Shown piece by piece: positions 1 to 20,350 of a stretch of 37,011 nt of DNA. Each line of letters opens with the position of its first letter. The first letter of the stretch is position 1. The notes beneath the pieces were generated by a model. It saw nothing but the letters and a program-made list of their open reading frames with translations, did no database searches and was not told the DNA's origin. The stretch is taken from the sequence record MH643777.1, one strand, 5' to 3'. Origin of the DNA: Pseudomonas phage YMC12/01/R960. Made by a program: the position numbers and the translations under genes.

Positions 1-54
1 ACTCCGTCTCTACACCGGCCAGCGCCTGCTGCTCGGCTTCGACGGTGTGGGGAG
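1..54 (+). CDS. partial host-like coding sequence (3' end, frame 2), product unknown
   Basis: Frame 2 shows high GC3 codon usage (LRLYTGQRLLLGFDGVGR) and ends at TGA 55-57. Sequence after ~56 becomes AT-richer and non-coding. Confidence 0.3.
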
Positions 55-214
55 GTGACTGTTTTGACACATGCCAAAAGAGGGAGGGATAGGCCAGAGC
101 CCCTATAGCACTAGGGCTCCAGCCGGACAGGCACTGTGGGACAGTTTGGAAAAAATCGATCAGGATTGAGCAAGGACTGCAAAATATTGATCGTTAATTG
201 GCACGGAATGAGCG

Positions 215-925
215 CTAAACCATCCATCGACCAAGCCAGACAACGCGGCCAATGATATCCAAGTCAGAAAGCTGGTCCTTGGGGACGACCATGTCCTTAT
301 ACGCCTTGTTTTCGCTGATGATCGCGATAGAGCCATCGAACTGTCGTTGTAAGCGCTTGGCGTAGAGCTGATCCCCGACCCGAATCACATAGATCGCTTC
401 ATCCCGCACGGTTCTGAGGTCATGGTCGATAACAACGGCGTCGCCATCCGACAGGAGGGGCTCCATGGAGTCGCCCCCGACCCTTACTGCCGACATCCTG
501 GTTGGCTCTAACCCCTTCTTACTCAAGCTGTAGCGCGTAAAGGCAAGCTGCGTAATAACGTGCGCGCCTTCGCTCCAGCTTCCATGTCCCGCGCTGACCC
601 TTGCGTCATACAGGGGGACGTAGACGTATTGGTCCGACCCCGTAGCCTCCCGCTCTTCCGACTTCTGGCTGCCCTCGCCGGTCATAAGCCAGCCCAGGCT
701 CACGCCTGCCGCCTTCGCCAAGGAAATTAGCACTCTCCGGGTGGGTTCCCCGCCTTTCAGGTACCTCTGCAACCCGCCTTGGGAGATTCCAGCATTCCTC
801 GCTAAAGCACTTGCGCTCCCTGCTATAGCGACAATGGAGCGCAGCCTTTCGATGAAAGCAGCGTCATTTTCAGGTTCGGTTGCGGAACTTGAAAGGCTGG
901 CGGTGCGCTCGCTACGCGTTTTCAT
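215..925 (-). CDS. c: prophage repressor: N-terminal HTH, C-terminal LexA/CI-like S24 peptidase domain
   Basis: 236 aa. HTH-like segment ISQGGLQRYLKGGEP. C-terminal GDSMEP (Ser) and AKRL (Lys) match S24 autopeptidase motifs. Leftmost gene, divergent from ner, as in D3112-like phages. Confidence 0.9.
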   Translation of the reverse strand: MKTRSERTASLSSSATEPENDAAFIERLRSIVAIAGSASALARNAGISQGGLQRYLKGGEPTRRVLISLAKAAGVSLGWLMTGEGSQKSEEREATGSDQYVYVPLYDARVSAGHGSWSEGAHVITQLAFTRYSLSKKGLEPTRMSAVRVGGDSMEPLLSDGDAVVIDHDLRTVRDEAIYVIRVGDQLYAKRLQRQFDGSIAIISENKAYKDMVVPKDQLSDLDIIGRVVWLGRWMV

Positions 926-954
926 GTAGACCTAACTATTTGATTTAATTGATA

Positions 955-1040
955 TTAATTCTATAGAGATCGAAAACCACATCCTATAGAACTTGAAAAC
1001 CGCTATAGAGCTTGTTTTTCAACTTCTATAGCGCTATGTT
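955..1040. promoter_or_regulatory. repressor/ner divergent promoter-operator region with four CTATAG palindromic repeats
   Basis: CTATAGAG at 961-968, CTATAGA at 984-990, CTATAGAG at 1003-1010, CTATAG at 1026-1031. Spacing is 23/19/23 bp, each flanked by GAAAAC/GTTTTC-like arms. AT-rich intergenic region between divergent c and ner. Confidence 0.55.
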
Positions 1041-1108
1041 TATGCCCTAAGTCACGTTAGACACCCCTAAAAAACCACCCGGCACGGTGGTTGAGATGGA
1101 ACGTAGGC

Positions 1109-1465
1109 ATGAACAGAACCGAAATACCCCGCGACAACAACGTCCGCTGGGAGTGGATCAAATACCAGCTCCGCGCCAGGGGGTCGTCCCTGGCCGAGGT
1201 GGCCCGCTCCCTCGACGTCTCCAGCCCGGCAGTCAAAAACGCCAAGCTGAATCCCTACCCTCGGGTAGAGCGCGCCATCGCTGCTGTACTCGACCTCAGC
1301 CCCCTGGTGCTGTGGCCTGAGCGCTGGCTCGACGACGAGAATCCGAAGCGGCAACGGCCCAATCGTTCGGAAACCCTCAAGGCATATGACAGTGTCATAT
1401 GCCGATCCGGGAAAAATAACAGATACGCTGACCAAGCGCAGCGTAAAGCCGACGCGGGGGCTTGA
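1109..1465 (+). CDS. ner: Ner-like DNA-binding regulator (Ner/Nlp family)
   Basis: MNRTEIPRDNNVRWEWIKYQLRARGSSLAEVARSLDVSSPAVKNA resembles Mu Ner/Nlp HTH proteins. The track ORF starts at TTG 1091; ATG at 1109 preferred. Confidence 0.8.
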   Translation: MNRTEIPRDNNVRWEWIKYQLRARGSSLAEVARSLDVSSPAVKNAKLNPYPRVERAIAAVLDLSPLVLWPERWLDDENPKRQRPNRSETLKAYDSVICRSGKNNRYADQAQRKADAGA

Positions 1466-1467
1466 AC

Positions 1468-1902
1468 ATGGCCCGCCGCAAAGACGACCGCACCCTGGAC
1501 ATCTTCGATGTTCCGCAGCCAGCTCGCGCTATACCCGGTGAGTGCAACTACGCCGCCCAGGTCAGCGAGCTGGTCAGCGAAATACTGAAGGCCGCCAACC
1601 TCGACCGTTACGAGATTGCCGCCCGCATGTCGCGCCTCTCCGGCGATGACGTGAGCAAGAACATGCTCGACGCCTGGTCGAGTCCCGCCCGAGTTGATCA
1701 CAACTTGCCTTTTTACCGCGCCGCCCTCCTGGAGGACGTCTGCGCGAGCCACCTGCTGACCAACTGGCTGGTCGATGTGCGGGGTGGTCGCGTGGCCTAT
1801 GGCCGAGACGCACTGCTCGCCGAACTGGGCCGCCTGGAGCGGACCCGCGAGGAAGCGGGTCGGCAGGCGCGTGAGCTGAAACGAATCCTGGGGGAGCCGT
1901 GA
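1468..1902 (+). CDS. early hypothetical protein, 144 aa
   Basis: ORF 1462..1902. ATG at 1468 overlaps the ner stop. Early operon position upstream of transposase. Confidence 0.6.
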   Translation: MARRKDDRTLDIFDVPQPARAIPGECNYAAQVSELVSEILKAANLDRYEIAARMSRLSGDDVSKNMLDAWSSPARVDHNLPFYRAALLEDVCASHLLTNWLVDVRGGRVAYGRDALLAELGRLERTREEAGRQARELKRILGEP

Positions 1903-2111
1903 TGACAAACACCGACCTCAAACCGCTGCTCGACAACCTGCGGAACGCCACCGAGTTCTGGAACCTAGTCAAAGAGGCCAGCGCTACGGACGAAAGCACC
2001 GTTCACAACCGTTCCTATCGGGACGCACTGGACTGGCTCGAATCGGCGGCCTTGGCCCTCGGTGACGCCCTGATCGCCCAGCGCAAAGCTGTCGGGGGCG
2101 ACCATGAGTGA
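1902..2111 (+). CDS. early hypothetical protein, 69 aa, immediately upstream of transposase A
   Basis: ATG 1902 overlaps the upstream stop (GTGATGA). Stop overlaps the A start (ATGAGTGA). Helical-looking small protein. Same size and position class as small host-takeover proteins of DMS3-like phages. Confidence 0.55.
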   Translation: MTNTDLKPLLDNLRNATEFWNLVKEASATDESTVHNRSYRDALDWLESAALALGDALIAQRKAVGGDHE

Positions 2112-4176
2112 ATGGTTCTCCGCACAGAAGCTGGCCGGCCTGCCCGGACTGCCTGGCACGGTTCAAGGCATCAATAGTCGCGCCACCCGTGACTCCTGGC
2201 AGCAAAGAAAGCACATGGGTAGAGGCGGTGGGCGTGAATACCACATTTCCAGCCTCCCCGAGGAAACCCGCGCCGCGCTGCTGAACGCCGCCCTGGGCGA
2301 GGTGGCCACCAAGGTGGTCCGCCAGGAGACGCAGCTGGCCCTGGTCGAAACCAACCGCCAGCAGCTGGTCGCCGACGCCCGCCAGGGGGTGCTGCACGCC
2401 CTGGACCTGATGATGGCCCGCACCGGCTACAGCCGGAAACGCTCCATCACCCTGATGCTGGACATGGCGCGCCTCGGCCAGGTCGAGCCGCAGCTGCTCG
2501 CCATGCTCAAGATGGCCCGCGATCCTCGCGGCCGCCCGAGCGCGGATGGCCTGCCGAGCGTGCGTAGCCTGGAGCGCTTCCTGGACCAGGCCGAGCGTGG
2601 CGCCCTGGTGCCGAAGGTCCGCCGCCCGGACATGAGCGTTCCCGACTGGGCGCCTGCCTTCATGACGATCTACCAAGGGCCGGAGAAGCGCAGCGCCCGC
2701 GCTGCCCATGCACTGCTGGAGAAGCACTGGCAGGGGCAAATGCCCAGCCTGGACCAGGTCTATGCGTTCCTGCGCAAGGTCGGCAACGTCAGCCGCGAGG
2801 TCGGGCGCATGGGTGAGCATGAAATCAAGGCGCTGCGCCCGTTCATTCGCCGCGACTTCACCAAGCTACTCCCGACCGACGTCTATTCCTGCGACGGCCA
2901 CACGTTCGACGCCGAGGTCCAGCACCCGATGCACGGCCGGCCCTTCCGGCCGGAAATCACCACCATCATCGACATCCGTACCCGTCGAATTCCGGGATGG
3001 TCCACCGGCCTGGCCGAGTCGGCCCTGGTGGTGGTCGATGCCCTGCGCGACGCCTGCACCAAGGGCGGCATTCCGGCCATCTTCTACGTGGACAACGGCT
3101 CAGGCTACGTAAACCACATGATGCGCGACGAGGCGGTCGGCCTTATGGGCCGCCTGGGCATCGACATGAAAAACAGCCTGCCCTACAACAGCCAGGCGCG
3201 GGGCGTGATTGAGCGCGTCCACCAGAGCCTGTGGATTCGGGCCGCCAAGGAACTGCCCGGCTACATCGGCGCCGACATGGACCGCCAGGCCAAGCTGGCC
3301 ACCTTCAAGCTGACTCGCCGGGCCATTGCCAAGGGCGGCACCATGCCGCTGATGTCTTGGGAATCTTTTGTCGCGTTCTGCGAACAGCAGATTGCCGAGT
3401 ACAACGACCGGCCGCACAGCAGCTTGCCGCGCATCGTTGACCCGAACACCGGTCGTCGCCGGCACATGACCCCCAACGAAGCGTGGGCGCTCCACGAAGC
3501 CGATGGCTTCAGCCCGATGCGGGTCACCGACGACGAGGCCCGGCCGCTGTTCCGACCCCAGGTGCTGCGCACCGTCCGCCGCTGCGAACTGGAGTTCATC
3601 GGCAACCGCTACTTCGCCCGCGAGCTGGAGGAATTCCACGGCGACCAGGTGGCCGTGGGCTACGACATCCACGACGCCAGCCGGGTGTGGGTCTACGACG
3701 GCGAGGGCCGCTTCCTCTGCACAGCAGAGCTGAACGGCAACAGCCGCGACTACATGCCGGCTTCGTATGTCGAGCGTGCCCGCGAGAAACGCGCAGAGGC
3801 CCGCGAGAAGCGCGCCCTGGCGCACCTCGACGAGATTCGCGCCGAGCGTGACGGCGGGTATGCCCTGGAAATGGATGCGCCGCTGTCCATCCCCGGCCTC
3901 GGCACGATCACCCCTGAGCAACTCCGGTCGCGCAGCGCCGCGACCCTCGAAATGCAGGCCGAACGGATCGACGAACCGCGCCCGGCCGCAGCCACCGCCC
4001 AAGCCACCACCGCCCAGGTCTTCACCCTGCCGACCGCTCCCGCCCAGCGCTACCGGCAGTGGTGCGAGCTGGCCGAGCGGCAGCGCTCCGGCCAACCCAT
4101 CGAGCCGGACGCCGCCCAGTGGTTCGAGGTTTACCCCAAATCCAAAGAATTCGCCGCCCAGCAGCGGCAAGCATGA
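2104..4176 (+). CDS. A: DDE transposase A (MuA-like)
   Basis: 690 aa. Follows ner and early genes, with B immediately downstream. Candidate catalytic acidic residues in CDGHTFDAEV and YVDNGSGYVN. Long C-terminal region. Confidence 0.93.
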   Translation: MSEWFSAQKLAGLPGLPGTVQGINSRATRDSWQQRKHMGRGGGREYHISSLPEETRAALLNAALGEVATKVVRQETQLALVETNRQQLVADARQGVLHALDLMMARTGYSRKRSITLMLDMARLGQVEPQLLAMLKMARDPRGRPSADGLPSVRSLERFLDQAERGALVPKVRRPDMSVPDWAPAFMTIYQGPEKRSARAAHALLEKHWQGQMPSLDQVYAFLRKVGNVSREVGRMGEHEIKALRPFIRRDFTKLLPTDVYSCDGHTFDAEVQHPMHGRPFRPEITTIIDIRTRRIPGWSTGLAESALVVVDALRDACTKGGIPAIFYVDNGSGYVNHMMRDEAVGLMGRLGIDMKNSLPYNSQARGVIERVHQSLWIRAAKELPGYIGADMDRQAKLATFKLTRRAIAKGGTMPLMSWESFVAFCEQQIAEYNDRPHSSLPRIVDPNTGRRRHMTPNEAWALHEADGFSPMRVTDDEARPLFRPQVLRTVRRCELEFIGNRYFARELEEFHGDQVAVGYDIHDASRVWVYDGEGRFLCTAELNGNSRDYMPASYVERAREKRAEAREKRALAHLDEIRAERDGGYALEMDAPLSIPGLGTITPEQLRSRSAATLEMQAERIDEPRPAAATAQATTAQVFTLPTAPAQRYRQWCELAERQRSGQPIEPDAAQWFEVYPKSKEFAAQQRQA

Positions 4177-4190
4177 AAGGAGCTGTATTC

Positions 4191-4943
4191 ATGACCACCC
4201 CGAAAACCACCCAACTGGCCAGCGGCATGGCCGACATCGCCAACATCGCCCTTTGCGATATCGCCCTGGAGAAAGCGCTGTCGCGTACCTCAACCTTGCC
4301 CGGCCTGGTCTGCTTCTACGGCCCGTCCGGCTTCGGCAAATCCGTTTCGGCCGCCTGGGTCGCCAATCGCCGCCGCGCCTACTACGTCCAAGCCAAAAGC
4401 GTCTGGACCCGCAAGCACACGCTGAAGTCGATCCTGGGGGAAATGGGCATCAAGCCGGCCGGGACCATCCCGGAAATGGCCGACCAGATCGCCGAGGAAC
4501 TGGCCGCCAGCGGCCGCCCGCTGATCATCGACGAAATGGACCATCTGGTCGCCGCTGGCCAGGTCGAACTGATTCGTGATCTGTACGAGTCCAGCCAAGC
4601 CTCCATCTTGCTGATCGGCGAGGAAATGCTGCCGACCAAGCTCAAGAAGTACGAACGCTTCCATGGCCGCGTTCTCAGCTGGGTTCCGGCCCAGCCAGTG
4701 TCCCTGGAAGACGCCCGCAACCTGGCGCCGGTCTACAGCCCCGGAGTGGCTATCGCTGACGATCTGCTCGCGCACCTGGTGAAGAAATCCCTGGGCTCTG
4801 TCCGTCGCGTCGCGGTGAACCTGGAGCAGTTGGCCGAGGCCGCCACCGTTCAGGGCCGGCGCGAGCTGGAACTGGCCGACCTCCAGCGCCTGAACCTGGA
4901 GCTGTATACCGGCGCGGCCCCGAACCCGAGGACTTCGAAATGA
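4191..4943 (+). CDS. B: transposition ATPase B (MuB-like AAA+)
   Basis: Walker A GPSGFGKS. RBS AAGGAG at 4176-4181 precedes ATG 4191. The track ORF 4059..4943 includes an upstream extension. Confidence 0.9.
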   Translation: MTTPKTTQLASGMADIANIALCDIALEKALSRTSTLPGLVCFYGPSGFGKSVSAAWVANRRRAYYVQAKSVWTRKHTLKSILGEMGIKPAGTIPEMADQIAEELAASGRPLIIDEMDHLVAAGQVELIRDLYESSQASILLIGEEMLPTKLKKYERFHGRVLSWVPAQPVSLEDARNLAPVYSPGVAIADDLLAHLVKKSLGSVRRVAVNLEQLAEAATVQGRRELELADLQRLNLELYTGAAPNPRTSK

Positions 4944-5605
4944 GCCTCGGCAAGAACCCGGCTCACCTCTGCATGGTCGGGGGCAAGAGCCCCCGCCAGC
5001 AGATGTGGGAAGTCATCCGGGCCAACCGCGAAGAGTTCACCGTCTACCGTGTGGCGCGCCGGTCCAATCAGCACGACAAGACCGTCGAGAAGTATGTCGC
5101 CTGCCTGCGCCTGGGCGGCTACGTCGAGGCGATTCGCGGATTCAAGCGCGGCGAAGAGGTCGTTTTCCAGCTGGTCCGCGACAACGGCGTCGAGGCACCG
5201 AACCTGAACGCCGATGGCAAGCCATCCCAGCAGGGATACACCACCGAGGCGGTCTGGCGGACGTTGCGCATCCTCGGTCCAGCGACCCCGGAGCAGATCG
5301 CCGCATCGGTGGCGGCCTCGGGCACGCCCGTGTCGCCCAGCACCGTTCAGCGCTACTTCATCGACCTCCAAAACGCCGGATACCTGACCCGCAACGGCCG
5401 CCACTACGCCCTCAAGCCGGGCCGCTACACCGGTCCACGGCCGCCCATTGTCCAGCGCGAGACGCGCCGTCAGGTCTACGACCCGAACCTGGATCAGGTC
5501 ATGTGGAGTTCGCACGGCGAGTACCAACACAACCGGAGTCGTTCGCGGGGCGCTGCCCAGGCTGGCGTGGCGGATACCGAAGAGAACAACGAATCAGGCG
5601 GCTGA
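4940..5605 (+). CDS. early hypothetical protein, 221 aa
   Basis: ATGA overlap with the B stop. Conserved position after B in D3112-like phages. Confidence 0.7.
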   Translation: MSLGKNPAHLCMVGGKSPRQQMWEVIRANREEFTVYRVARRSNQHDKTVEKYVACLRLGGYVEAIRGFKRGEEVVFQLVRDNGVEAPNLNADGKPSQQGYTTEAVWRTLRILGPATPEQIAASVAASGTPVSPSTVQRYFIDLQNAGYLTRNGRHYALKPGRYTGPRPPIVQRETRRQVYDPNLDQVMWSSHGEYQHNRSRSRGAAQAGVADTEENNESGG

Positions 5606-5676
5606 GGCCCTGATGAAGACGGTGCCGAGGGGTGGCCGCCCCTCGACACCTACCACCACCCGGAAGGAGAGGAGCC

Positions 5677-6312
5677 ATGCAAATGCATGCACAGCAAGGC
5701 GGTAGCGCCGCGAAGGCTAGCACAAGCCACTTTCGCGGCACTACGAACATTGAGGAGTACATCCGCGACATGGCGAGCCGTGGGTTCAGTCGTCGGGCCG
5801 TGAGTAAGGCCCTGGGTATGCAGTCGCGGAAGTTCAAGGAACTCCTGGAACTCCTGCCAGAAATGGACTGGGTGCCTCCTTGTCAGTCGTGGGACCGCCT
5901 GCGCGCTGACCAGGAGAAGAAGGGACGCAAGTGTCCGATGACAGAGGGGCGTCTGCGCTCGATTGTCGCGGCGAGGCGCGCCGCGAGGGCAAAACACACC
6001 CGCTACACCGCGTTTGGTGTAACAGCCACCTTGCCGGAGCTGGTGAGCCAGTTCGGCCAGGTCACCGCCGCCACCGTGCGCATGCGGTTGGCCAAGGGAA
6101 TGCCTCTGGAGCAGGCCCTTGCCTCCGTGCGCAGCGATCCTTGTGGAAGGAAGATCGCTGATAGCCATCCCTGGAAACAGGAGGCGCACCGGGGGGCTAT
6201 CAATCACCTTGAGCGTCAAACCGCTGCAATGCAGGAACGCGTTCAGGGGGAGCGCCTGGACCGAGCGGCCTCACTGCTGAGCCAGGAGGTGCCGCCATGC
6301 GCCGAACACTGA
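5677..6312 (+). CDS. early hypothetical protein, 211 aa
   Basis: Strong RBS GGAAGGAGAGGAG at 5663-5675 precedes ATG 5677. The track ORF starts at GTG 5632. Confidence 0.65.
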   Translation: MQMHAQQGGSAAKASTSHFRGTTNIEEYIRDMASRGFSRRAVSKALGMQSRKFKELLELLPEMDWVPPCQSWDRLRADQEKKGRKCPMTEGRLRSIVAARRAARAKHTRYTAFGVTATLPELVSQFGQVTAATVRMRLAKGMPLEQALASVRSDPCGRKIADSHPWKQEAHRGAINHLERQTAAMQERVQGERLDRAASLLSQEVPPCAEH

Positions 6313-6413
6313 TCCCCATCGGCATCTTCCTGGCCCTCGGCCTGCTACTGGTCCTGGTCGGTGATGCCCTGCTGCCGATCCGTCGCCTCATTGCCTGGCA
6401 GTGGGGGTGCTAA
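6297..6413 (+). CDS. possible 38-aa hydrophobic membrane peptide (MRRTLIPIGIFLALGLLLVLVGDALLPIRRLIAWQWGC)
   Basis: Not in the ORF track because it is under 60 aa. ATG 6297. Single predicted TM helix. Stop TAA overlaps the next ATG (TAATG). Confidence 0.3.
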   Translation: MRRTLIPIGIFLALGLLLVLVGDALLPIRRLIAWQWGC

Positions 6414-6826
6414 TGGACCGCGCAATCGATCTGTCGGCCTGGGGCGAGCGTCCGCCCGTCTTCGTCCAGCTGCTCGCCGCTGAGGTGGCCCGCAGCAGCC
6501 AGACGAAGGCCGGCGAGGCAATCGGCATGAGCCGTTCGACCGTCAGCACCATCCTCGCCAACCGCTACCCGTCGCCCTCGACGATCCGCGTCGAGCGCCG
6601 CGTCCTGGCCGCGCTGAGCCGTATTGAATGCCCGGCCTTGGGCGAGGCGGTGACCTCGGTCGAGTGCAGCGAGTACCTCCAGCGGCCGGCGCCGCTGAAC
6701 AACCCCGTCGCGATGCGCTGCTGGAAAGCGTGCCGCGCCTGTCCACGCAACCCGCATACCGCCCCCATGAAACGAGAGGAACAAGGCCATGAGAACCGCA
6801 TTGCCCTTGAAAGTCTTGACGCCTGA
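6413..6826 (+). CDS. putative HTH DNA-binding protein with Cys-rich C-terminus
   Basis: AGEAIGMSRSTVSTIL is HTH-like. C-terminal CxxC-rich motifs (CWKACRACPRNPH). ATG at 6413 inside track ORF 6401..6826. Confidence 0.6.
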   Translation: MDRAIDLSAWGERPPVFVQLLAAEVARSSQTKAGEAIGMSRSTVSTILANRYPSPSTIRVERRVLAALSRIECPALGEAVTSVECSEYLQRPAPLNNPVAMRCWKACRACPRNPHTAPMKREEQGHENRIALESLDA

Positions 6827-7100
6827 CCTGGCCCGGAGCCTGCGCACCTTCAACGACGCCGCCCGGCTGCTCCAGCGCATGGGGGTCCGCCTTCATCGCC
6901 TGGAGCCGGCAGAGGGGCGCGTGACCATCGCCGCAGATGACGCCCGCCAGCTCTTGGAGAAAGGCTACCTGATGGGCTTCCAGCGCGACGCCTCGGCCGG
7001 CAGCACCCGTTACATCACCCGCTTCCAGGGCATCACCCTGGCCTGGAGCGAACCGATCAGCTACCGCGACTTCGCCGGCAGCAACCCCGTAATTCACTGA
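6789..7100 (+). CDS. early hypothetical protein, 103 aa
   Basis: ATG 6789 preceded by GAGGAACAAGG. Overlaps the upstream gene by 38 nt. Confidence 0.5.
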   Translation: MRTALPLKVLTPDLARSLRTFNDAARLLQRMGVRLHRLEPAEGRVTIAADDARQLLEKGYLMGFQRDASAGSTRYITRFQGITLAWSEPISYRDFAGSNPVIH

Positions 7101-7116
7101 ACAGGAGAACGCCAAC

Positions 7117-7635
7117 ATGGCACCGAAGAAACGTCTGAAATCCGCTGCCGCCGTCTACGTCCCGCAGACCCGCGAACAAGTCATCAGCGATATCAAGAAC
7201 ATCGGCGACCTCCAGCGCGAGCTGGCCCGACTGGAAACCGCAATGAACGATGAAATCGGCCAGATCACCGAGCGCTATTCGGAGCCGGCCGAAGACCTGA
7301 AGAAGCGCCTGGCGGTCCTCCAGGGCGGAGTCCAGTCCTGGTGCGAGGCCAACCGTGCCGAGCTGACCGACAACAACAAGGTCAAGTACGCGAACCTCAC
7401 CACCGGCGAGGTCCAGTGGCGCATCCGTCCCCCGTCCGTGACTGTGCGCGGCGCCGATGCGGTCCTGGAGCTGCTGCGCAGCAAAGGGCTTATCCGCTTC
7501 ATCCGCACCAAGGAAGAGGTGAACAAGGAAGCGATCCTCAACGAACCCGAGGCCGTCCAGGGGCTTCCGGGGCTGACCGTGAACTCCGGCATCGAAGACT
7601 TCGCCATCGTGCCTTTCGAAGCGGAGGTGCAGTAA
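7117..7635 (+). CDS. gam: Gam, Ku-like dsDNA-end-binding host-nuclease inhibitor (Mu Gam homolog)
   Basis: 172 aa. MAPKKRLKSAAAVYVPQTREQVISDIKNIGDLQRELARLE...WCEANRAELTDNNKVKYANLTTGEVQWRIRPPSVTVRGADAVLELL...FIRTKEEVNKEAIL is collinear with recalled Mu Gam. RBS CAGGAGAA. Confidence 0.9.
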   Translation: MAPKKRLKSAAAVYVPQTREQVISDIKNIGDLQRELARLETAMNDEIGQITERYSEPAEDLKKRLAVLQGGVQSWCEANRAELTDNNKVKYANLTTGEVQWRIRPPSVTVRGADAVLELLRSKGLIRFIRTKEEVNKEAILNEPEAVQGLPGLTVNSGIEDFAIVPFEAEVQ

Positions 7636-7838
7636 TGGGCGTCCTGACCGAAATGAAGTGGCCGAAAACCACACTGCTGGACTTGCTGAACGACGCCGAG
7701 CGGCTCGACGTGGACCTGTTCGACGTCGTCCATCTGGAGTTGAACAGCGGCCGGGACTACCTGGTGGCTGTGATCACTGGGGAGAAAGCGGCCAATGCCG
7801 CCGAACTGCTGGAGCGGCTGCGCTCCAAGGACGTGTGA
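7635..7838 (+). CDS. early hypothetical protein, 67 aa
   Basis: TAATG overlap with the gam stop. ATG at 7635 inside track ORF 7341..7838. Confidence 0.5.
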   Translation: MGVLTEMKWPKTTLLDLLNDAERLDVDLFDVVHLELNSGRDYLVAVITGEKAANAAELLERLRSKDV

Positions 7839-7839
7839 C

Positions 7840-8148
7840 ATGGCCCGCAACCGCGCGCAACAGCTGTGCATCGTCACCTTGGACTATCAGCGCTTCCTGT
7901 TACCCCAGGCTGATGCACTCAAGCTGATAGACATCATGAGTCGAGCCGCAGAGGTTCAGGCCGACTACGCCTCTGGAGCTGGGTTCAAGTACACCGTCGG
8001 CGAAGTGCCGGAAGTCGAGTTGACGATAGTACGCCCCAGTCAATTGGTCATGCCGCAGGCCGAGCCGGCCCCAGCTACACCACGCGCTCGCCGGAAGTCT
8101 CCGGCCCAGGTCACGCACGATGCCATTCGGCTGCTGGAGGGGCTCTGA
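7840..8148 (+). CDS. early hypothetical protein, 102 aa
   Basis: ATG 7840 lies 1 nt after the upstream stop. Start is in frame with track ORF 7795..8148. Confidence 0.5.
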   Translation: MARNRAQQLCIVTLDYQRFLLPQADALKLIDIMSRAAEVQADYASGAGFKYTVGEVPEVELTIVRPSQLVMPQAEPAPATPRARRKSPAQVTHDAIRLLEGL

Positions 8149-8150
8149 TC

Positions 8151-8432
8151 ATGACCAAGACGTTCGCCATGTGCCGCATCGACGGCCTGATCGAGCTGCG
8201 GGAGGAACACCCAGGCGAGGGCTACTTCGCCCTTGCCGTGGGCGACTTGGCCAGCGTGCGGGCGGCGGTCTTTGCAACCGCTGAGCCGCACCAGGTCGGC
8301 AAGAAAGTCGCCCGGCGCGTGCCGGGTGTGAGCCCCGACGCCACCGACCGCGAAAACCTGGGCTCCATCGCCCGCTACATCCAGACCCTGGGCCAGCAGG
8401 ATCGGCCCGGCTTCCGTGCGCTGGGGGTGTGA
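8151..8432 (+). CDS. early hypothetical protein, 93 aa
   Basis: ATG start. Tightly packed in the early operon. Confidence 0.55.
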   Translation: MTKTFAMCRIDGLIELREEHPGEGYFALAVGDLASVRAAVFATAEPHQVGKKVARRVPGVSPDATDRENLGSIARYIQTLGQQDRPGFRALGV

Positions 8433-8433
8433 A

Positions 8434-8640
8434 ATGCAGCAGTCCAACCCCTTCAATCACCCCGGACAGAGCTACGGCGCCGTAGACGTCGATAGCCGAC
8501 TCCGCGCCGTTGCCGGCTTCGACCTGGAGCAATGCCGCGCCGCGCTCGCGGTCACCGGCCTCCAGAAGATCGTCGAGCAGAAAATTCGCACCCGCATCCG
8601 CCAGCTGGAAAAGCAGGCATCCGCACAGAAGGAGGCATAA
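8434..8640 (+). CDS. early hypothetical protein, 68 aa
   Basis: ATG 8434 right after the upstream TGA. The track ORF begins at GTG 8416. Confidence 0.5.
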   Translation: MQQSNPFNHPGQSYGAVDVDSRLRAVAGFDLEQCRAALAVTGLQKIVEQKIRTRIRQLEKQASAQKEA

Positions 8641-8642
8641 CC

Positions 8643-8912
8643 ATGGCCGTATACACCATCACCATCAGCGACACCGAGGGCGGCGTCCTCTTCGGCATGA
8701 AAGGCCCGCAGTTGCACGATTCCGAAGCTTCGAAACTGGCCTATGCCCTCATGGAGGCCTCGAAGTCCATTGGCCGGGAACTCGCCAAGCTGAACGGAGT
8801 TGGCAACGCCGTTTCCTGCGCCTGCGACGAGTGCCTGGCACGCCGCGCTCGCGGCGAGGAACCGCAACAGGAAATCCACTACACCACGGCTAAGAACCGC
8901 ACCGTCCACTGA
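8643..8912 (+). CDS. early hypothetical protein, 89 aa, Cys-containing (CACDEC)
   Basis: ATG 8643 (MAVYTITISD) after TAA 8638-8640. Start is in frame with track ORF 8532..8912. Confidence 0.55.
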   Translation: MAVYTITISDTEGGVLFGMKGPQLHDSEASKLAYALMEASKSIGRELAKLNGVGNAVSCACDECLARRARGEEPQQEIHYTTAKNRTVH

Positions 8913-8918
8913 GCGAAA

Positions 8919-8941
8919 CCGCCCCGGCCTGGCCGGGGCGG
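8919..8941 (+). terminator. GC-rich hairpin (11-bp stem CCGCCCCGGCC / GGCCGGGGCGG) after an early gene
   Basis: Perfect inverted repeat with a 1-nt loop directly downstream of the stop at 8912. No T-tract follows, so function (terminator versus RNA-stability element) is uncertain. Confidence 0.4.
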
Positions 8942-8982
8942 TCTGCCGGACGTGGTGGTCCGGTACTGATGAGCAGCCACCC

Positions 8983-9279
8983 ATGACGAACGAAACCAAG
9001 ACAGACCGCCAGCGCCGCCTGGCGCGGGAACGCCAACGGGCGAAGCGCGAGCGCGATGCCCTGCGCCGCGCTGCGCTGGGCGGTCGCCGCTTCAACATGG
9101 ACATGTACCAGGGAACGGCGGATGCACTCGATCTGATCTGCGCGGCCGGGGGCTTCGCCGAGCCGGCCGAGGCGGTCACCTTGCTCCTACACAACGTTGC
9201 CGAAATTGCAGAGCGTGACGCGTCACGTTTTGCCGAATTGATCCAAAAGAGAAGCCATCCAGGGAGGACCAAGCGATGA
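8983..9279 (+). CDS. hypothetical basic protein, 98 aa
   Basis: ATG 8983 (MTNETKTDRQRRLARERQRAKRE). Start is in frame with track ORF 8800..9279. Confidence 0.5.
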   Translation: MTNETKTDRQRRLARERQRAKRERDALRRAALGGRRFNMDMYQGTADALDLICAAGGFAEPAEAVTLLLHNVAEIAERDASRFAELIQKRSHPGRTKR

Positions 9280-9683
9280 GCCTACGCGCCGTCAACCTCG
9301 CAAAAATCCACATCGCCAAGGCCCAGCTGGGCATGGACGATGACACCTATCGCGCATTGCTGGCTCGCGTCGCGGGCGTGCGCTCGGCCAAGGACCTAGG
9401 GCCGCGCCAGATCGACCACGTACTGGTCGAACTCCAGCGCCTGGGCTGGAAACCGAAGAGCAACCGGCAGGGCCGGGCGACGCCAAAAGTACCTCAAAAC
9501 CGGCAAACCGTGCTGCGTAAAATCACCGCGCTCCTGGCCAGCGCCCATCGCCCCTGGAGCTACGCCGACCACATGGCCCGGCGCATGTTCCAGGTCGAGC
9601 GGGTCGAGTGGCTGGACGACAGCCAGCTCTACCGGCTGATGCAGGCGCTTATCATCGATAGGAGCCGCCATGGCCAGGTCTGA
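9276..9683 (+). CDS. gemA: GemA-like regulatory protein (Mu gp16 / DUF1018 family)
   Basis: N-terminus KIHIAKAQLGMDDDTYRALLARV matches the GemA-family hallmark. RBS AGGGAGGA. ATGA overlap with the upstream stop. Confidence 0.7.
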   Translation: MSLRAVNLAKIHIAKAQLGMDDDTYRALLARVAGVRSAKDLGPRQIDHVLVELQRLGWKPKSNRQGRATPKVPQNRQTVLRKITALLASAHRPWSYADHMARRMFQVERVEWLDDSQLYRLMQALIIDRSRHGQV

Positions 9684-10119
9684 GGTGGATCTTCGGGAGG
9701 TCCAGGACATGCTGCCGGATACCGTCCGCGACATGGCCGGACGCATAGGACTGCCGGCCACCCTGGTGGTGGTCGAGCAACTCGGCGGCACGTCCTGGCG
9801 GATAGCCGAGGGCCGGGCGCGGAGGGGCGAAGCGCGCCGGGCTGCGCTGGCCGAACTAGTGGGCAGCGACATCGAGGAGCAGCTCCACACGCACTATCGG
9901 GGCGAAGAAATTTACGTGGCTCGCTGCCACAAGGCGCTGGTACGGTGGCGCGACCTGGAGATCGTCGAGCGCTTCGAGCAGGGCTTGCGTGATGGGCAAA
10001 CCGCCCGTAGCCTGCTCAGCGATCTTGCCCGCAAGTACAACCTGTCCGACCGCTGGATATGGGAGATTGTCAACCGGCCGAGCGAGCCGGCACCGCAGCA
10101 ATCCACCCTGTTCCACTAA
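9670..10119 (+). CDS. mor: Mor-like middle-operon transcription activator (Mor/C family)
   Basis: 149 aa. GEEIYVARCHKALVRWRDLEIVERF resembles the Mor GQVYIPRG...IRDLRIWNDF region. C-terminal HTH-like LSDLARKYNLSDRWIWEIV. Positioned just before the lysis and late genes. Confidence 0.72.
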   Translation: MARSEVDLREVQDMLPDTVRDMAGRIGLPATLVVVEQLGGTSWRIAEGRARRGEARRAALAELVGSDIEEQLHTHYRGEEIYVARCHKALVRWRDLEIVERFEQGLRDGQTARSLLSDLARKYNLSDRWIWEIVNRPSEPAPQQSTLFH

Positions 10120-10140
10120 GCCGGGGCGCAACGCCCCGGC
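10120..10140 (+). terminator. GC-rich hairpin (GCCGGGGCG-CAA-CGCCCCGGC) immediately after the mor stop
   Basis: 9-bp perfect stem with a 3-nt loop right after TAA 10117-10119. Marks the end of the early transcription unit. Confidence 0.4.
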
Positions 10141-10222
10141 CGGCGTCTCCACGCCGATCCTGTCTCAGCCGTCGAAGTCAATCATCTAATTCCCCCTAGC
10201 ATGTCGCCGCCACGATGGCGGC

Positions 10223-10570
10223 ATGAAAGAGTTCAACGCCCCGCATCCACCGCGCAGCCCCCGCGACTACGCCGCCGCCATCCTGGCCGAGCCCAGCCGC
10301 GAGCGTCGTAACGCTCTGCTGGAAGCCTGCCCGGTCAACTGGCAGCCGCTCGTTCGGGCACACGTCGAGGACGCCTTCGCGAAGGTCAAGGCGTATCGCC
10401 AGATGATGGACCACCGCGCCGAGTCGATCCGGCGCGGCCCGCCTGCTGCTCCCCGCGTCACCGACACCGATTTCCGCATATCCAACTACACCAAGTCCGC
10501 CCCGGAGGTAGGCAATGCGCACCTATCCGCAATTCGGGCAGCGCTCGCAACGGAAGCACCAAATGCCTGA
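10223..10570 (+). CDS. hypothetical protein, 115 aa, first gene after mor
   Basis: ATG 10223. A palindromic element overlaps the start (see findings). Confidence 0.55.
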   Translation: MKEFNAPHPPRSPRDYAAAILAEPSRERRNALLEACPVNWQPLVRAHVEDAFAKVKAYRQMMDHRAESIRRGPPAAPRVTDTDFRISNYTKSAPEVGNAHLSAIRAALATEAPNA

Positions 10571-10985
10571 TCCCGCATCCACCTCGGCCGGCAGCGCCGC
10601 GCTGCTGAAAATGTTCGGCATCCACATAAGCGCGGGCGCCCTGGCTGCCGCCCTGGGCTTCCTGGTCCTGTGGCCCCGAACCATGAAAGAGGGGTTCGCC
10701 CGGCTGTTCTGCACCATCGTCGCGTCCAGCGTCTTCGGCCCAATCCTGGTGGTTTACCTGCACTCCAACCGCCCCGAGCTGTTCGAGTCCGCCCAGGTGG
10801 TGGCCGGGCTCTACCAACTGGAGCCAGCGGTCGGCCTGCTGTTCGTTTCCGCTCCGCTCCTGGTGATTGCCGGTCTGCCTGCCTGGTGGCTGATCGGTGC
10901 GGCCCTGCGCCTGTTTGAGCGGGACGGCGATTCATGGCTGGGCGCGTTCGCCCAGTGGGTAAAACGCAAACTGGAGAACAACTGA
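10515..10985 (+). CDS. holin-like membrane protein, multiple TM helices
   Basis: GGAGG sits 6 nt upstream of ATG 10515. Hydrophobic segments ALAAALGFLVLWP, LFCTIVASSVFGPILVVYL, VGLLFVSAPLLVIAGLPAWWLIGAAL. Alternative start ATG 10563. Confidence 0.5.
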   Translation: MRTYPQFGQRSQRKHQMPDPASTSAGSAALLKMFGIHISAGALAAALGFLVLWPRTMKEGFARLFCTIVASSVFGPILVVYLHSNRPELFESAQVVAGLYQLEPAVGLLFVSAPLLVIAGLPAWWLIGAALRLFERDGDSWLGAFAQWVKRKLENN

Positions 10986-11401
10986 TGGCCCTTCAACCTC
11001 GCGGTATCCGCAACAACAACCCCGGCAACATCGTCTGGTCAGCACGCAACAACTGGCAGGGCCAGCTCCCGCACAACCCGAAGGTTGAGCCGCGTTTCGC
11101 CCGCTTCGACACCGCGCATAACGGCATCCGCGCCCTGGCAAAGCTGCTGCTGAACTATCGCAAGGTCTATGGCCTGCGCACCGTCGAATCGCTGATCGCA
11201 CGCTGGGCGCCGTCGAACGAGAACAACACCCGCGCGTATGCCTCGGCCGTGGCCCGAGCGATGGGAGTTCCGCCGCAGGCCAGCCTGCACCTGGACCAGG
11301 CCACCCTGGTCGCTCTGGTGACCGCCATCATTCACCAGGAAAACGGGCAGCAGCCCTACAGCGCCGAGCAGATCGCCCAGGCCGTGCGGGAGGTGCTGTG
11401 A
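10985..11401 (+). CDS. putative endolysin / peptidoglycan hydrolase of the lysis module (NNPGN motif)
   Basis: 138 aa from ATG 10985 (TGATG overlap). Lies between holin-like and spanin genes. GIRNNNPGNI motif. Assigned by position plus motif only. Confidence 0.45.
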   Translation: MALQPRGIRNNNPGNIVWSARNNWQGQLPHNPKVEPRFARFDTAHNGIRALAKLLLNYRKVYGLRTVESLIARWAPSNENNTRAYASAVARAMGVPPQASLHLDQATLVALVTAIIHQENGQQPYSAEQIAQAVREVL

Positions 11402-11643
11402 TGCAGCGCCCCAGCGGAATCAGCCTCAGCGATCTGTTCGCGATCTGCCGTGAAGCCCCGGCCAACCGATGGCTCTGGATACGCCTCTATCTCCGCGACC
11501 TGCTGGCCCGCGTCGTGATTCTGGCCTTCATGGCAATTGGTGCCGCAGGCCTCGCCTATGGCCTGGGCGGGGCGTTCGCCTACGGCTTCATGCAGACCGT
11601 TGCGTCCTACCAGGTCCAGCTCAGCGTCGAGAAATCGCCATGA
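11401..11643 (+). CDS. small membrane protein of the lysis cassette (holin/antiholin-like), 80 aa
   Basis: TM segment LARVVILAFMAIGAAGLAYGLGGAFAYGFM. ATGA overlap with the Rz start. Confidence 0.5.
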   Translation: MQRPSGISLSDLFAICREAPANRWLWIRLYLRDLLARVVILAFMAIGAAGLAYGLGGAFAYGFMQTVASYQVQLSVEKSP

Positions 11644-12041
11644 CCTGGCGCGTCGGCCTGGTTGTCTTTGTGCTCCTGGTGATGGTCTGGACGGCCGGCT
11701 GGTGGGGCGGTCGCGAGGCTGGGCTGGCCGATGGGCGCGCCGCCTGCGCCGACGCACAGACCCGCGCATATCGCGACGTCCTGGAGCAATCGGCGGCACA
11801 ACTGAAGACGGTCCAGGACACCAGCGCGGCTCTTTTCCAGCGCCTGGCCCAGCGGGCCGACAGCGACCAACAAACTACTCGGGAGCTTCGCCATGCCCTG
11901 GCCGAAACCGCTGCTGATCGCGCTGCCTGCCGCTTTCCTGCTGGCGTCATGCAGCAGCTCGAAACCGCCCGTCAACGTGCCGCCCAGGCCACTACCGGCG
12001 GCCTTGGCTCAACCGTGCCCGACCCCGGTGGCGGTGACTGA
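11640..12041 (+). CDS. Rz-like i-spanin
   Basis: N-terminal TM (VGLVVFVLLVMVWTAGWWGG) followed by a predicted coiled-coil periplasmic domain. Rz1 is embedded in the +1 frame. Confidence 0.7.
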   Translation: MTWRVGLVVFVLLVMVWTAGWWGGREAGLADGRAACADAQTRAYRDVLEQSAAQLKTVQDTSAALFQRLAQRADSDQQTTRELRHALAETAADRAACRFPAGVMQQLETARQRAAQATTGGLGSTVPDPGGGD

Positions 12042-12147
12042 TGACAGCCCCGATGCCGCCGCAATTGCCCTCAAACAACTCTACGACCAATACGGCGTTT
12101 GCGCCGGCCTGCACTGGGACACCGTGCGGCACCTTCAAAAGGACTGA
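11893..12147 (+). CDS. Rz1-like o-spanin lipoprotein, embedded in and extending beyond Rz
   Basis: Lipobox LLASC after a signal peptide, and a proline-rich mature region. Classic embedded Rz/Rz1 architecture. Confidence 0.75.
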   Translation: MPWPKPLLIALPAAFLLASCSSSKPPVNVPPRPLPAALAQPCPTPVAVTDDSPDAAAIALKQLYDQYGVCAGLHWDTVRHLQKD

Positions 12148-12151
12148 TCCG

Positions 12152-12340
12152 ATGACCGAAAAGAAAGCCTCTCCCGAGTTCGAACTGCTGCAACGCATCG
12201 ACGGCCGCCTGGAGCGCTTCGAGGACCGATTCCCGCAGATCGAACGTAAGGCCGTGCTGTACGGCTCGGCGGCCGGCGCGCTGGCGGGTGGCCTGGTTGC
12301 CTGCGGCCTGCTCGCGGCGCGTATCAAGCTCGGTATCTGA
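12152..12340 (+). CDS. small protein with C-terminal TM helix, 62 aa
   Basis: ATG 12152 (MTEKKASPEFELLQRIDGRLERFEDRF...) in frame with track ORF 12041..12340. Confidence 0.45.
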   Translation: MTEKKASPEFELLQRIDGRLERFEDRFPQIERKAVLYGSAAGALAGGLVACGLLAARIKLGI

Positions 12341-12348
12341 GGTAGCCC

Positions 12349-12849
12349 ATGGCGCACCCGAAGGAAACCCGCGACGCCCTGCGCCGCGCCTACGTCCTCG
12401 ACCGCCAGTCCCTAGAGGTCGCGGCCGCCATGTTCGGCGTCTCCTACGGCACCGCCCGCCGCTGGAAACAGCAGGCGGAAGCCGAGGGGGACGACTGGGA
12501 CAAGGCGCAATCGGCGCAGTTGCTGGCCGGTGGTGGGCTGGAGGACGTGGCGCGCCAGGTGCTGGCCGGCCTGGTGACCCAGTTCCAGGCCACCATGGAG
12601 GCGATCCAGGTGGACAGCGCGATCACGCCAGCGGTCAAGGTGCAGATGCTCGCCAGCCTGGCCGACGCCTATAACAAGTCGATCAGCGCATCGAAGCGGG
12701 TACTACCGGAAACCTCCAGCCTGGCCACCGCAATGGAAGTCATCCAGCGCCTGGCGGCCTTCATCCGTGAACAATTCCCGCAGCACGTCCAGGCCTTCGC
12801 CGAGATTCTGGAGCCGTTCGGGGAAGTAATCGCCAAGGGGCTGAAATGA
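12349..12849 (+). CDS. terminase small subunit (Mu gp27-like, DUF1804)
   Basis: N-terminal HTH-like LEVAAAMFGVSYGTARRWKQQAEAEGDDW. Immediately upstream of and overlapping the large terminase (ATGA). Confidence 0.72.
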   Translation: MAHPKETRDALRRAYVLDRQSLEVAAAMFGVSYGTARRWKQQAEAEGDDWDKAQSAQLLAGGGLEDVARQVLAGLVTQFQATMEAIQVDSAITPAVKVQMLASLADAYNKSISASKRVLPETSSLATAMEVIQRLAAFIREQFPQHVQAFAEILEPFGEVIAKGLK

Positions 12850-14621: not shown

Positions 14622-14632
14622 GAGACGCAACG

Positions 14633-16219: not shown

Positions 16220-17505
16220 TGGCAACGCCAACCGAGGCCGATCTGCGGGCCATCTTCGCCATGCGGCCGGAGGCCGCTATCGAGTACCTGGAGCGCAAGG
16301 GATTCGCCATTACCTGGAACTGGCACGATGTTGACGCGGCCACCCATGCCCGAGCGCTGACGGTGGCCAAGGCGGCACGCCTGGACGTGCTCCAAGACAT
16401 CCGCGACGCCCTGGTCGATAACCTGGAACGTGGCGGAACGCTGCGCGACTTCCAGCGCAACCTGCGCCCGATCCTGGAGGCCAAGGGCTGGTGGGGACGC
16501 CAGATAGTGGTTGCGCCGGACGGCGGCGCCGAGGTCGCCCAGCTCGGCAGCCCGCGCCGGCTGGAAACGATCTACCAGACCAACATGCAGTCGGCCTACA
16601 TGGCCGGGCGCTATGCCGCCGCATACGAGGCCAGGGAAACTCACCCTTACTGGATGTATGTGGCCGTCATGGACAGCGTCACCCGGCCCAGCCATGCGGC
16701 GCTACATGGCAAGGTGTTCCGCTGGGACGACCCGATCTGGCAGCACATCATGCCGCCGAATGGCTACAACTGCCGGTGCCGAATCGTTCCGTTGACGGCG
16801 GCCGCTGTGCGTCGCCGTGGTCTGACGGTCGAATCCAGCGTCGGCAAGACCGGCCAAGTGACCGTCGAGACGGGCGTAGACAAGCGGACGGGGGAGATTC
16901 GGGAGCAGACCTTGACCACCCTGGAGACGACCGACCGGGCCGGTCGGAAGATCCAATTTCGCCCCGATGCCGGGTTCGACGGCAGCCCGATACAGAGCGC
17001 CCTGATGGACCAGGTGCTGTACAACAAGGCCGAGCGCACCCTGGGAGCGCCTGCCGCCCTCGGCGAGGTCCAGGACGTGCTCCTGGACCCGGTACGCCAG
17101 CGCGCCTGGCAGGCGTTTGTGGACCGCTCCACGTCGCCCCAGGGACAGACGATGTCGGTCGGCGTCCTCGATCCGACCGACATCACCTATGCGGCTGCCC
17201 AGGGTGCCCAGCTCCAGGCTGGCGTGGTATCGGCCAGCGACACCGTGATTCGTAACAGCTCGGTCGCTCGCGAGCAGCTGGCGAACCTGCCGCAGCGCCT
17301 GGCCCAGCCCGCTATGGTGCTGTGGGAGCGTGGCAGCGAGTCGCTGGTCTATGTCGTCCAGGATGGCGACTCTACCCTGGCGGTTCGGCTGCGCGGTGGC
17401 ATCTATGGGCCGGGCCAAATGGAGAACATCAGCCAGGTTACTGAGGTGACGATGGAAAGCATCGACGACGGGCTCGCCCTGGGCCGTTACAGGAGGGTTC
17501 GCTAA
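16219..17505 (+). CDS. Mu F-like head morphogenesis protein (gp30 family)
   Basis: 428 aa. TGATG overlap with the portal stop. Conserved position. Confidence 0.88.
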   Translation: MATPTEADLRAIFAMRPEAAIEYLERKGFAITWNWHDVDAATHARALTVAKAARLDVLQDIRDALVDNLERGGTLRDFQRNLRPILEAKGWWGRQIVVAPDGGAEVAQLGSPRRLETIYQTNMQSAYMAGRYAAAYEARETHPYWMYVAVMDSVTRPSHAALHGKVFRWDDPIWQHIMPPNGYNCRCRIVPLTAAAVRRRGLTVESSVGKTGQVTVETGVDKRTGEIREQTLTTLETTDRAGRKIQFRPDAGFDGSPIQSALMDQVLYNKAERTLGAPAALGEVQDVLLDPVRQRAWQAFVDRSTSPQGQTMSVGVLDPTDITYAAAQGAQLQAGVVSASDTVIRNSSVAREQLANLPQRLAQPAMVLWERGSESLVYVVQDGDSTLAVRLRGGIYGPGQMENISQVTEVTMESIDDGLALGRYRRVR

Positions 17506-17972: not shown

Positions 17973-17990
17973 GGGAAATGAATTCGGACA

Positions 17991-18084
17991 AGCGGCACAT
18001 TGTGCCTATTGCGGATTAGGCACAATGTGCCTAATCTAGCGTCATGCCAGCCACAACGGCGAGGCGAACCCAAGGAGAGACACC
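17991..18084 (+). promoter_or_regulatory. anti-CRISPR promoter with two 13-bp palindromic operators (putative Aca1 sites) and RBS
   Basis: IR1 GGCACATTGTGCC at 17994-18006. IR2 GGCACAATGTGCC at 18019-18031. Candidate -35 TTGCGG 18009-18014 and -10 TAATCT 18032-18037 with a 17-bp spacer. RBS GGAGAG 18073-18078. Confidence 0.65.
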
Positions 18085-19915: not shown

Positions 19916-19924
19916 GGAGGCGCT

Positions 19925-20323: not shown

Positions 20324-20350
20324 CAGGCTCACCAACGGAGAACCGGACAC

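Follow-up and report, generated by a model that had tools for sequence, protein, structure and literature searches.

The DNA analysed here, a stretch of 37,011 nucleotides from Pseudomonas phage YMC12/01/R960 (record MH643777.1; hereafter, the window), contains two small open reading frames (ORFs), of 144 and 69 amino acids (aa), between a ner-like gene and the gene for transposase A, a layout confirmed from the ORF list and the sequence. An earlier note, arguing from position and size, considered both to be candidate host-takeover factors, and the question raised by this locus is whether the two genes indeed share such a role. The proposal holds for the 69-aa ORF, which we identify as aqs1, and is not supported for the 144-aa ORF, which appears to encode a conserved regulator; the combination of Aqs1 and a core CII-like regulator is probably the best overall explanation of the locus.

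In a megablast search, positions 1-4200 of the window matched 121 deposited phage records, nearly all of which are transposable phages of P. aeruginosa from the genus Casadabanvirus, and the megablast alignments with DMS3, MP22, Paws and GXNNB6 (97-98% identity) start at window position 46. Further along, MP29/JBDs5 match the middle of the window at 98.9% identity, and Nox/MP38 are nearest to the right end, with a match that ends at about position 36730. Given this succession of matches (DMS3/MP22 on the left, MP29/JBDs5 in the middle, Nox/MP38 on the right), the window consists, by sequence comparison, of one entire DMS3-like mosaic prophage (46..36730) bordered by short stretches of host DNA; this Pseudomonas prophage is transposable, of the DMS3/MP22 type (genus Casadabanvirus). 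The prophage also encodes AcrIF2. The repressor (Table 1) matches Pfam Peptidase_S24 (E = 1.8e-23), HTH_3 and Phage_CI_repr and is 99% identical to the DMS3 repressor (tblastn), the ner-like product matches phrog_769 (E = 4.7e-30), and transposase A is 99% identical to the DMS3/MP22 transposase. The longest ner ORF begins with TTG at 1091, and the actual start is probably the ATG at 1109, as in the annotation of MP22 orf2; CATGAACA is kept at the ner start in 32 of 52 loci.

Table 1. Features of the early region of the prophage (window coordinates)
Feature	Position	Strand	Remarks
c repressor gene	215..925	-	CI-type HTH and S24 peptidase domain; divergent from the early operon
ner-like gene	1109..1465	+	First gene of the early operon; Pfam HTH_35 (E = 2.4e-16)
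144-aa regulator gene (DMS3 gp2/D3112 orf3/MP22 orf3)	1468..1902	+	ATG 1468, TGA 1900-1902
TGATG stop/start overlap of the 144-aa gene and aqs1	1900..1904	+	One shared base; left boundary of the accessory slot
aqs1 (69 aa)	1902..2111	+	ATG 1902, TGA 2109-2111
Overlap of the aqs1 end and the transposase A start, ATGAGTGA	2104..2111	+	8 nt; junction conserved, 28 loci aligned
Mu-type transposase A gene	2104..4176	+	Pfam HTH_Tnp_Mu_1 (E = 6.8e-38), Mu-transpos_C (E = 1.3e-21) and rve

The ner stop codon (1463-1465) is separated by 2 nt from the ATG of the 144-aa gene, and the two junctions that follow are overlaps. Stop/start overlaps or near-overlaps thus join all four genes, so that translation from one early transcript is indicated, and an early rightward operon with the order ner, CII-like regulator, aqs1 and transposase A is the best explanation of this arrangement. 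The tight translational coupling previously ascribed to the 69-aa ORF is evident on both sides, in the TGATG overlap upstream and in the 8-nt overlap with transposase A downstream. Shine-Dalgarno-like G-rich runs are found upstream of the starts at 1468, 1902 and 2104. Both ORFs are annotated in DMS3 (DMS3-2 and DMS3-3), MP22 (orf3 and orf5), LESphi4 and D3112, and comparison of the 144-aa gene across 69 distinct sequences revealed invariant residues with freely varying synonymous codons in the plus-strand frame. The annotation in many phage records, together with conservation at the protein level and synonymous variation, therefore indicates that both ORFs are real genes rather than chance ORFs in GC-rich DNA. 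On the minus strand, this stretch also contains long ORFs (1255..1908 and 1574..1999), most readily explained as artefacts of GC-rich sequence.

The 69-aa ORF had been assigned to the class of LasR anti-activators by its size and position, and the protein comparison makes this assignment exact: 69 of the 69 residues are identical to those of DMS3-3 (DMS3 gp3) and MP22 orf5. A phmmer search showed that it is identical over its full length (residues 1-69, E = 2.6e-42) to the protein in PDB entries 6V7W and 6V7X, which is named 'quorum sensing anti-activator protein Aqs1'; the entries 6V7U and 6V7V, which contain a variant differing by two residues, were matched as well. The LESphi4 protein annotated as 'quorum sensing anti-activator protein' is 62% identical, and the position of the gene is the same as in DMS3, MP22 and LESphi4. 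Aqs1 of DMS3 binds LasR and PilB via distinct surfaces: LasR binding depends critically on Y39/R40 in the YRDALD motif, and F19 and W45, which are essential for PilB binding, pack against the N2 domain of PilB at a hydrophobic patch; on Aqs1 binding, the hexamer of PilB and the polar localisation of this ATPase are destabilised (PMC13436744). The functional picture of Aqs1 in two further papers agrees (PMC11445458 and PMC11436027). Residues 39-44 of the 69-aa ORF are YRDALD, including Y39/R40, and F19 and W45 are both present. The 69-aa protein is an already known one, an exact copy of the well-characterised Aqs1; its identity and mechanism, as a LasR anti-activator and PilB inhibitor, are practically certain, and the same activity is predicted for the copy in this prophage.

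Others have shown that, soon after infection, the DNA-binding domain of LasR is bound by Aqs1, a small dimer, which blocks the quorum-sensing cascade at its top, and that through the separate surface containing F19 and W45 Aqs1 binds the PilB N2 domain and destabilises the hexamer, such that type IV pili are not assembled. The loss of pili, in turn, blocks superinfection by other pilus-dependent phages. It is hardly conceivable that, owing to the host or genomic context, this protein has just one of the Aqs1 activities or another target: the LasR-binding motif does vary naturally in the Aqs1 family (FSDAHE in LESphi4 versus YRDALD), and the FSDARE substitution serves experimentally to abolish LasR binding, but all 69 residues here, including YRDALD, F19 and W45, are those of the characterised DMS3 protein. 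Aqs1 homologues are present in 114 records of the phage collection (30 at 99% identity or more and 80 below 80%), and among the deposited casadabanviruses the Aqs1/Tip homologues span 50-100% identity.

The true accessory slot of this locus is between the 144-aa regulator and transposase A. We analyzed 80 viral contigs that encode relatives of the 144-aa protein and in which the neighboring genes were placed by tblastn. The slot is empty in 50 of these contigs, is occupied by Aqs1/Tip-family genes in 17, by a gp4-like gene only in one and by unrelated ORFs in 11, with one case unresolved. The variants among the 17 include Aqs1-type proteins of 65-69 aa and the combination of gp4 with Tip; further variants are a 143-aa protein in which an Aqs1-like domain is fused to a Cys-rich extension and an 80-aa ORF together with a 64-aa Aqs1-like protein. 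Some relatives contain an extra HTH_Tnp_Mu_1 protein in the slot. At 44 of the 80 loci, all of them among the 50 with an empty slot, the stop of the regulator gene overlaps the transposase A ATG by exactly 8 nt. The junction sequence is conserved (…GGnGACC ATG AGT GA, or ATG CGT AA), and therefore the last gene before the transposase, whichever it is, ends in GGDHE or G-D/N-H-A; the former tail is encoded by the junction at 2104..2111 and is shared by Aqs1 and Tip, and the latter is the tail of the 144-aa homologue in empty-slot relatives. Thus, in phages with an empty slot the regulator itself carries the tail ('…LGGDHA'), whereas in those with an occupied slot it stops early ('…LGEP', '…MGEKA') and overlaps the first inserted gene through a TGATG- or ATGA-type junction, the same as in the window. 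Given these overlaps at both ends, the inserted genes inherit translational coupling on both sides. The slot data support the general premise that this position collects small host-directed proteins.

The 144-aa ORF lies outside this variable slot, and the evidence runs against the takeover role that had been suggested for it: it is a core gene with an HTH fold, present in all the relatives examined. It is 99% identical to DMS3-2 (gp2), LESphi4 P41_3 and MP22 orf3 and 95% identical to D3112 orf3. Homologues were detected in 119 phage records, at 90% identity or more in 113 of them; in the deposited casadabanviruses the protein is 93.7-100% identical. The best 120 matches in a collection of 5.8 billion proteins are 73-100% identical and come from many species of Pseudomonas, Metapseudomonas, Stutzerimonas and Ectopseudomonas, and an exhaustive HMMER search against 50%-identity representatives identified 443 clusters at E-values of 1e-3 or better. 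Comparison with Aqs1 and Tip, which the earlier note had recommended, and with D3112 gp4 showed no similarity for the 144-aa protein.

The 144-aa protein belongs to phrog_2345, annotated as 'transcriptional regulator' (E = 1.2e-61), and shows a weak match (E = 1e-5, residues 35-136) to phrog_101, 'CII-like transcriptional activator', a family that includes CII of phage 186 (E = 3.7e-58). Among 80 diverse family members, 28 match phrog_101 (best E-value 1.3e-9) and 4 match the Pfam family Phage_CP76 (PF06892). Pfam and NCBIfam scans with the 144-aa protein itself gave no match, nor did a search of it against the PHROG families of lambda CII (phrog_191, 3638 and 725) or a search of PDB sequences with this protein alone; the PDB search with an 80-sequence profile produced just coiled-coil noise on the C-terminal helix. 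We found no functional or experimental study in the literature on DMS3 gp2, D3112 orf3 or a casadabanvirus 'CII'; the paper on Fc02 deals with B3-like phages, where another gene comes after ner.

An initial AlphaFold model, for which the alignment was shallow, had a mediocre pLDDT of 73, whereas the AF2 model based on a diverse 80-sequence alignment reached a pLDDT of 94.1 and a pTM of 0.80. The modelled helices at approximately residues 29-42, 47-58, 64-71, 82-91 and 96-104 form an XRE-type HTH domain, the five-helix arrangement of XRE/lambda-repressor-like DNA-binding proteins, and are followed by a long C-terminal helix (113-141). The putative recognition helix is invariant (S63, K64, D68, A69 and W70), and the N-terminal 25 residues, outside the HTH domain, contain a conserved D-x-F-x-x-P-x-P motif. 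In a BFVD fold search, the HTH matches were weak only (E-values of 0.024 or worse). When the family profile was compared by hhalign with the 186 CII sequence, either singly or within an alignment of 24 sequences, the probability was about 0.2% (below 1%); because the template is shallow (Neff about 1.5), this result counts only weakly against a relationship. It is very likely that the 144-aa protein is a core HTH-containing DNA-binding regulator of the phage, and we tentatively relate it to CII on the basis of position and remote similarity. The gene itself is an already annotated and universally conserved regulator of the phage family, with a function that is predicted from sequence.

The order of the repressor gene (leftward), ner (rightward), the 144-aa gene and transposase A is the same in 80 of the 80 contigs. 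In the subset of 64 contigs with a transposase less than 50% identical to that of the window, the 144-aa protein has a median identity of 78%, as against 55% in Ner, 53% in the repressor and 39% in transposase A, and it is 64-82% identical in phages whose transposase keeps 36-44%. By the Nei-Gojobori method, in comparison with the window, dN and pS are 0.16 and 0.70, respectively, for the 144-aa gene (dN/dS near 0.08), 0.37 and 0.66 for ner, and 0.60 and 0.62 for tnpA, and third-position identity is 0.43-0.44 across the three genes, with synonymous sites equally saturated. The 144-aa protein is the most constrained of the early proteins; given the equal synonymous saturation, its gene is as old as its neighbors and under unusually strong selection at the protein level. 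The same saturation leads us to reject recent horizontal transfer as the cause of this conservation. Analysis of codon entropy showed that synonymous codons vary freely also where the residue is invariant (L57, S58 and R84, for instance, are each encoded by six different codons), and the codon-entropy scan of the 144-aa gene revealed no block of suppressed synonymous change that would mark an embedded DNA or RNA element. Distant members (28-42% identity) occupy the same place: in one contig (L007), the order is ner, a small ORF, the 144-aa homologue, A and B; in another (L095), an HTH_35 gene, the 144-aa homologue, a gene for an HTH_Tnp_Mu_1 protein and a Mu transposase gene; and in a third (L088), a leftward gene for a CI-type repressor, a Cro-like HTH_31 gene and the 144-aa homologue.

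In phage 186, the CII site is ATGTTTG-N13-CAAACAT at the cII start, and no half-sites of this type were found near the 5' end of the 144-aa gene. A scan for promoters on both strands of positions 850-2250 detected no site, including no sigma-70-like leftward promoter near the 5' end of the 144-aa gene, and such absence is not proof, given that activator-dependent promoters fit the consensus poorly. The direct repeat GGTCAGCGA (1560-1580) was considered as a DNA site and is accounted for by a repeated VSE peptide. Upstream of ner, a block is conserved in 52 distinct loci that comprises TATGTTTAT, ACGTTAGAC, an A-run and a hairpin. The conserved ATGTTTA that precedes ner is similar to ATGTTTG, the half-site of 186; it is without an inverted partner and more plausibly represents the -10 element of the early promoter. 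On the minus strand, the same block, which is located between ner and the repressor gene, reads as a hairpin (-16.1 kcal/mol) with a U-run after it, a structure that would tend to hinder a leftward establishment transcript of the lambda or 186 style from reaching the repressor gene.

The reading of the 144-aa protein as a CII-type regulator follows from its position, its fold and the weak family signal; for the specific role of a CII-type activator of lysogeny, we would put the chances somewhat below even. In this role, the protein would come from the early ner-operon transcript, right after the Cro/Ner-type protein, would bind DNA through the invariant recognition helix and oligomerise through the long C-terminal helix (113-141), and would activate transcription that favors repressor synthesis and lysogeny, as CII does in 186 and lambda. 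With similar reserve, we propose as a tentative generalization that the DMS3 gp2 family could be the lysis-lysogeny master regulator of Mu-like Pseudomonas phages and a remote relative of 186 CII whose structure has been remodelled. The conservation of the family would then come from contact with a conserved component of the host, for instance a protease or RNA polymerase, and aqs1-like accessory genes would have been spliced into the C-terminal tail of the regulator, thereby inheriting its coupling to the transposase. This coupling might also be taken to mean that the 144-aa protein is not a lysis-lysogeny regulator and instead binds DNA as an accessory component of the machinery for Mu-type transposition, where it might attach to the phage ends or an enhancer, or tune the synthesis of transposase A, with the coupling reflecting a stoichiometric partnership. 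The exact 8-nt overlap with the transposase A start at 44 of the 80 loci, the Mu-type transposase downstream in nearly all recovered contexts and the conservation of the 144-aa protein, which exceeds that of the transposase, are compatible with such a factor, and the extra HTH_Tnp_Mu_1 protein of some relatives suggests that DNA-binding proteins connected with transposition accumulate here. We nevertheless consider it unlikely: coliphage Mu transposes without such a gene between ner and A, the sole detectable sequence relationship of the 144-aa protein is with the CII-type activator family, the homologue in the distant CI/Cro-like context (a short contig) adjoins small ORFs and not a transposase, and strong conservation opposite a transposase that retains 36-44% identity would be odd for a specific partner.

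Less probable still is the original suggestion, in which the 144-aa protein would take part in host takeover by binding a host protein and inhibiting it, in the manner of Tip and Aqs1. Its gene does belong to the early operon, its strong conservation across the phages of many Pseudomonas species could reflect a conserved host target, and the D-x-F-x-x-P-x-P motif lies outside the HTH domain; however, the canonical XRE HTH fold, whose putative recognition helix is invariant, the universal presence and fixed synteny, unlike those of the variable slot genes, and the lack of similarity to Aqs1, Tip and gp4 all argue against this role, and both the family name and the remote homology indicate transcription regulation. 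Should the 144-aa protein instead be an activator of lysogeny establishment, as in the CII-type reading that we favor, this would fill a gap in the lysis/lysogeny choice of Mu-like phages, a modest advance that would concern a regulator of widely used model phages (DMS3 and the JBD phages, employed in CRISPR and anti-CRISPR work). Because the prophage has a fully intact aqs1, LasR is predicted to be inhibited and type IV pilus function to be lost in the lysogen or infected host, with superinfection exclusion and altered virulence traits as expected consequences. The practical outcome is annotation, with nothing new in kind.

Among the known systems, Aqs1 of DMS3 (gp3) is the closest to the 69-aa ORF, having the same length, the same overlaps and the same location directly upstream of transposase A, with no difference at the protein level; the one distinction is the surrounding genome, which is mosaic here. 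Tip (twitching inhibitory protein, D3112 gp05), the other protein with which a comparison had been advised, aligns in its C-terminal half (residues 78-136) with residues 7-69 of the 69-aa ORF (56% identity, E = 2e-21) and shares with it the last place in the slot, the GGDHE tail and PilB as the target, but Tip consists of 136 aa, and its Ser-rich N-terminal extension of about 75 residues is missing from the 69-aa ORF. The D3112 slot also holds gp4 (108 aa), which has no counterpart here and did not align with the 69-aa ORF. For the 144-aa gene, DMS3 gp2, D3112 orf3 and MP22 orf3 (PHROG 2345) are the same gene in the same place after ner. The likeness to lambda CII (PHROG 191) is one of functional analogy alone, that is, an early-operon activator produced after Cro. 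CII of phage 186 (PF06892, PHROG 101, PDB 6VLI), which forms a tetramer, is longer, at 169 aa versus 144 aa, and only 14% identical in the structural alignment, and, unlike 186 cII, the 144-aa gene is found in a Mu-type transposable phage and is coupled to the transposase. Nevertheless, the 144-aa gene shares with 186 cII its placement directly after a Cro/Apl-type gene and divergent from the repressor, and the phage 186 layout, cI/apl/cII/fil, dhr, mirrors the order of the repressor, Ner and the 144-aa gene in this prophage.

Analysis of the DNA upstream of ner revealed a block between the operators and the ner start codon that is kept across 52 distinct loci, although the operator repeats otherwise differ between these loci. 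The block combines TATGTTTAT and ACGTTAGAC with a run of A residues and a hairpin of the form ACCACC-N6-GGTGGT, the stem of which co-varies among the loci. The element TATGTTTAT, present in 46-48 of the 52 loci, probably represents the -10 region of the early promoter. Read on the minus strand, the hairpin precedes UUUUUU and accordingly looks like an intrinsic terminator of leftward transcription. A second minus-strand hairpin with terminator-like features is located close to the end of ner; its folding energy is unremarkable (z -0.8), and in D3112 the stem is retained and the loop differs.

The 3' end of ner itself contains a perfect palindrome which, as RNA, is predicted to form a hairpin of -15 kcal/mol (z -4.0 compared to shuffled sequences). 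The equivalent site in DMS3, MP22 and LESphi4 reads GGCATATGTC-A-GACATATGCC, so that palindromy is preserved despite the changed inner bases. D3112 has no palindrome at this site, and some distant loci (L041, L067 and L073) possess different palindromes at a matching relative position. In the RefSeq entry for DMS3 (NC_008717), ner (1046-1422) is unannotated and the transposase start is placed at 2175, with a conserved coupled ATG at 2064; both the missing ner and the late start are likely annotation gaps.

Features of the prophage and its flanks, in window coordinates
Feature	Position	Strand	Remarks
Host flanks	1-45 and 36731-37011
Conserved DNA block	1036-1092		between operators and ner start; 52 distinct loci
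Palindrome GGCATATGACA-G-TGTCATATGCC	1381-1403	+	perfect, 23 nt; within 3' end of ner
Terminator-like hairpin TACGCTG...CAGCGTA	1424-1445	-	followed by T-rich run; close to ner end
ORF	5632-6312	+	up to 226 aa; in segment missing from MP29
Anti-CRISPR AcrIF2	18103-18378	+	100% identity to MP29 ORF30 (annotated AcrF2)
Homologue of small MP29 ORF32	18485-18586		after AcrIF2 gene

Some related loci carry unusual proteins in the slot between the genes for the 144-aa regulator and transposase A. In L017-L019 (1709-2143 in L017), the slot protein is 143 aa long and consists of an Aqs1-like N-terminal domain and a Cys-rich, zinc-finger-like C-terminal extension. The extra small slot proteins of L036 (2150-2467) and L095 (2852-3436) correspond to the N-terminal DNA-binding domain of Mu transposase (HTH_Tnp_Mu_1).

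The prophage termini are TGT at 46 and ACA at 36730. Coding sequence in the right flank specifies part of the condensation domain of a non-ribosomal peptide synthetase (Pfam PF00668, E 6.9e-22), including the HHxxxDG motif; therefore, the prophage appears to split an NRPS gene. The five bases next to each prophage end are GACGG and GCCGA rather than the 5-bp target duplication that would be expected.

Apart from the AcrIF2 gene and its neighbor, both shared with MP29, the window contains a 738-bp segment (5545-6282) that is missing from MP29, which is otherwise 97-99% identical. The ORF in this segment has no Pfam match. This segment is a further accessory region of the early operon.
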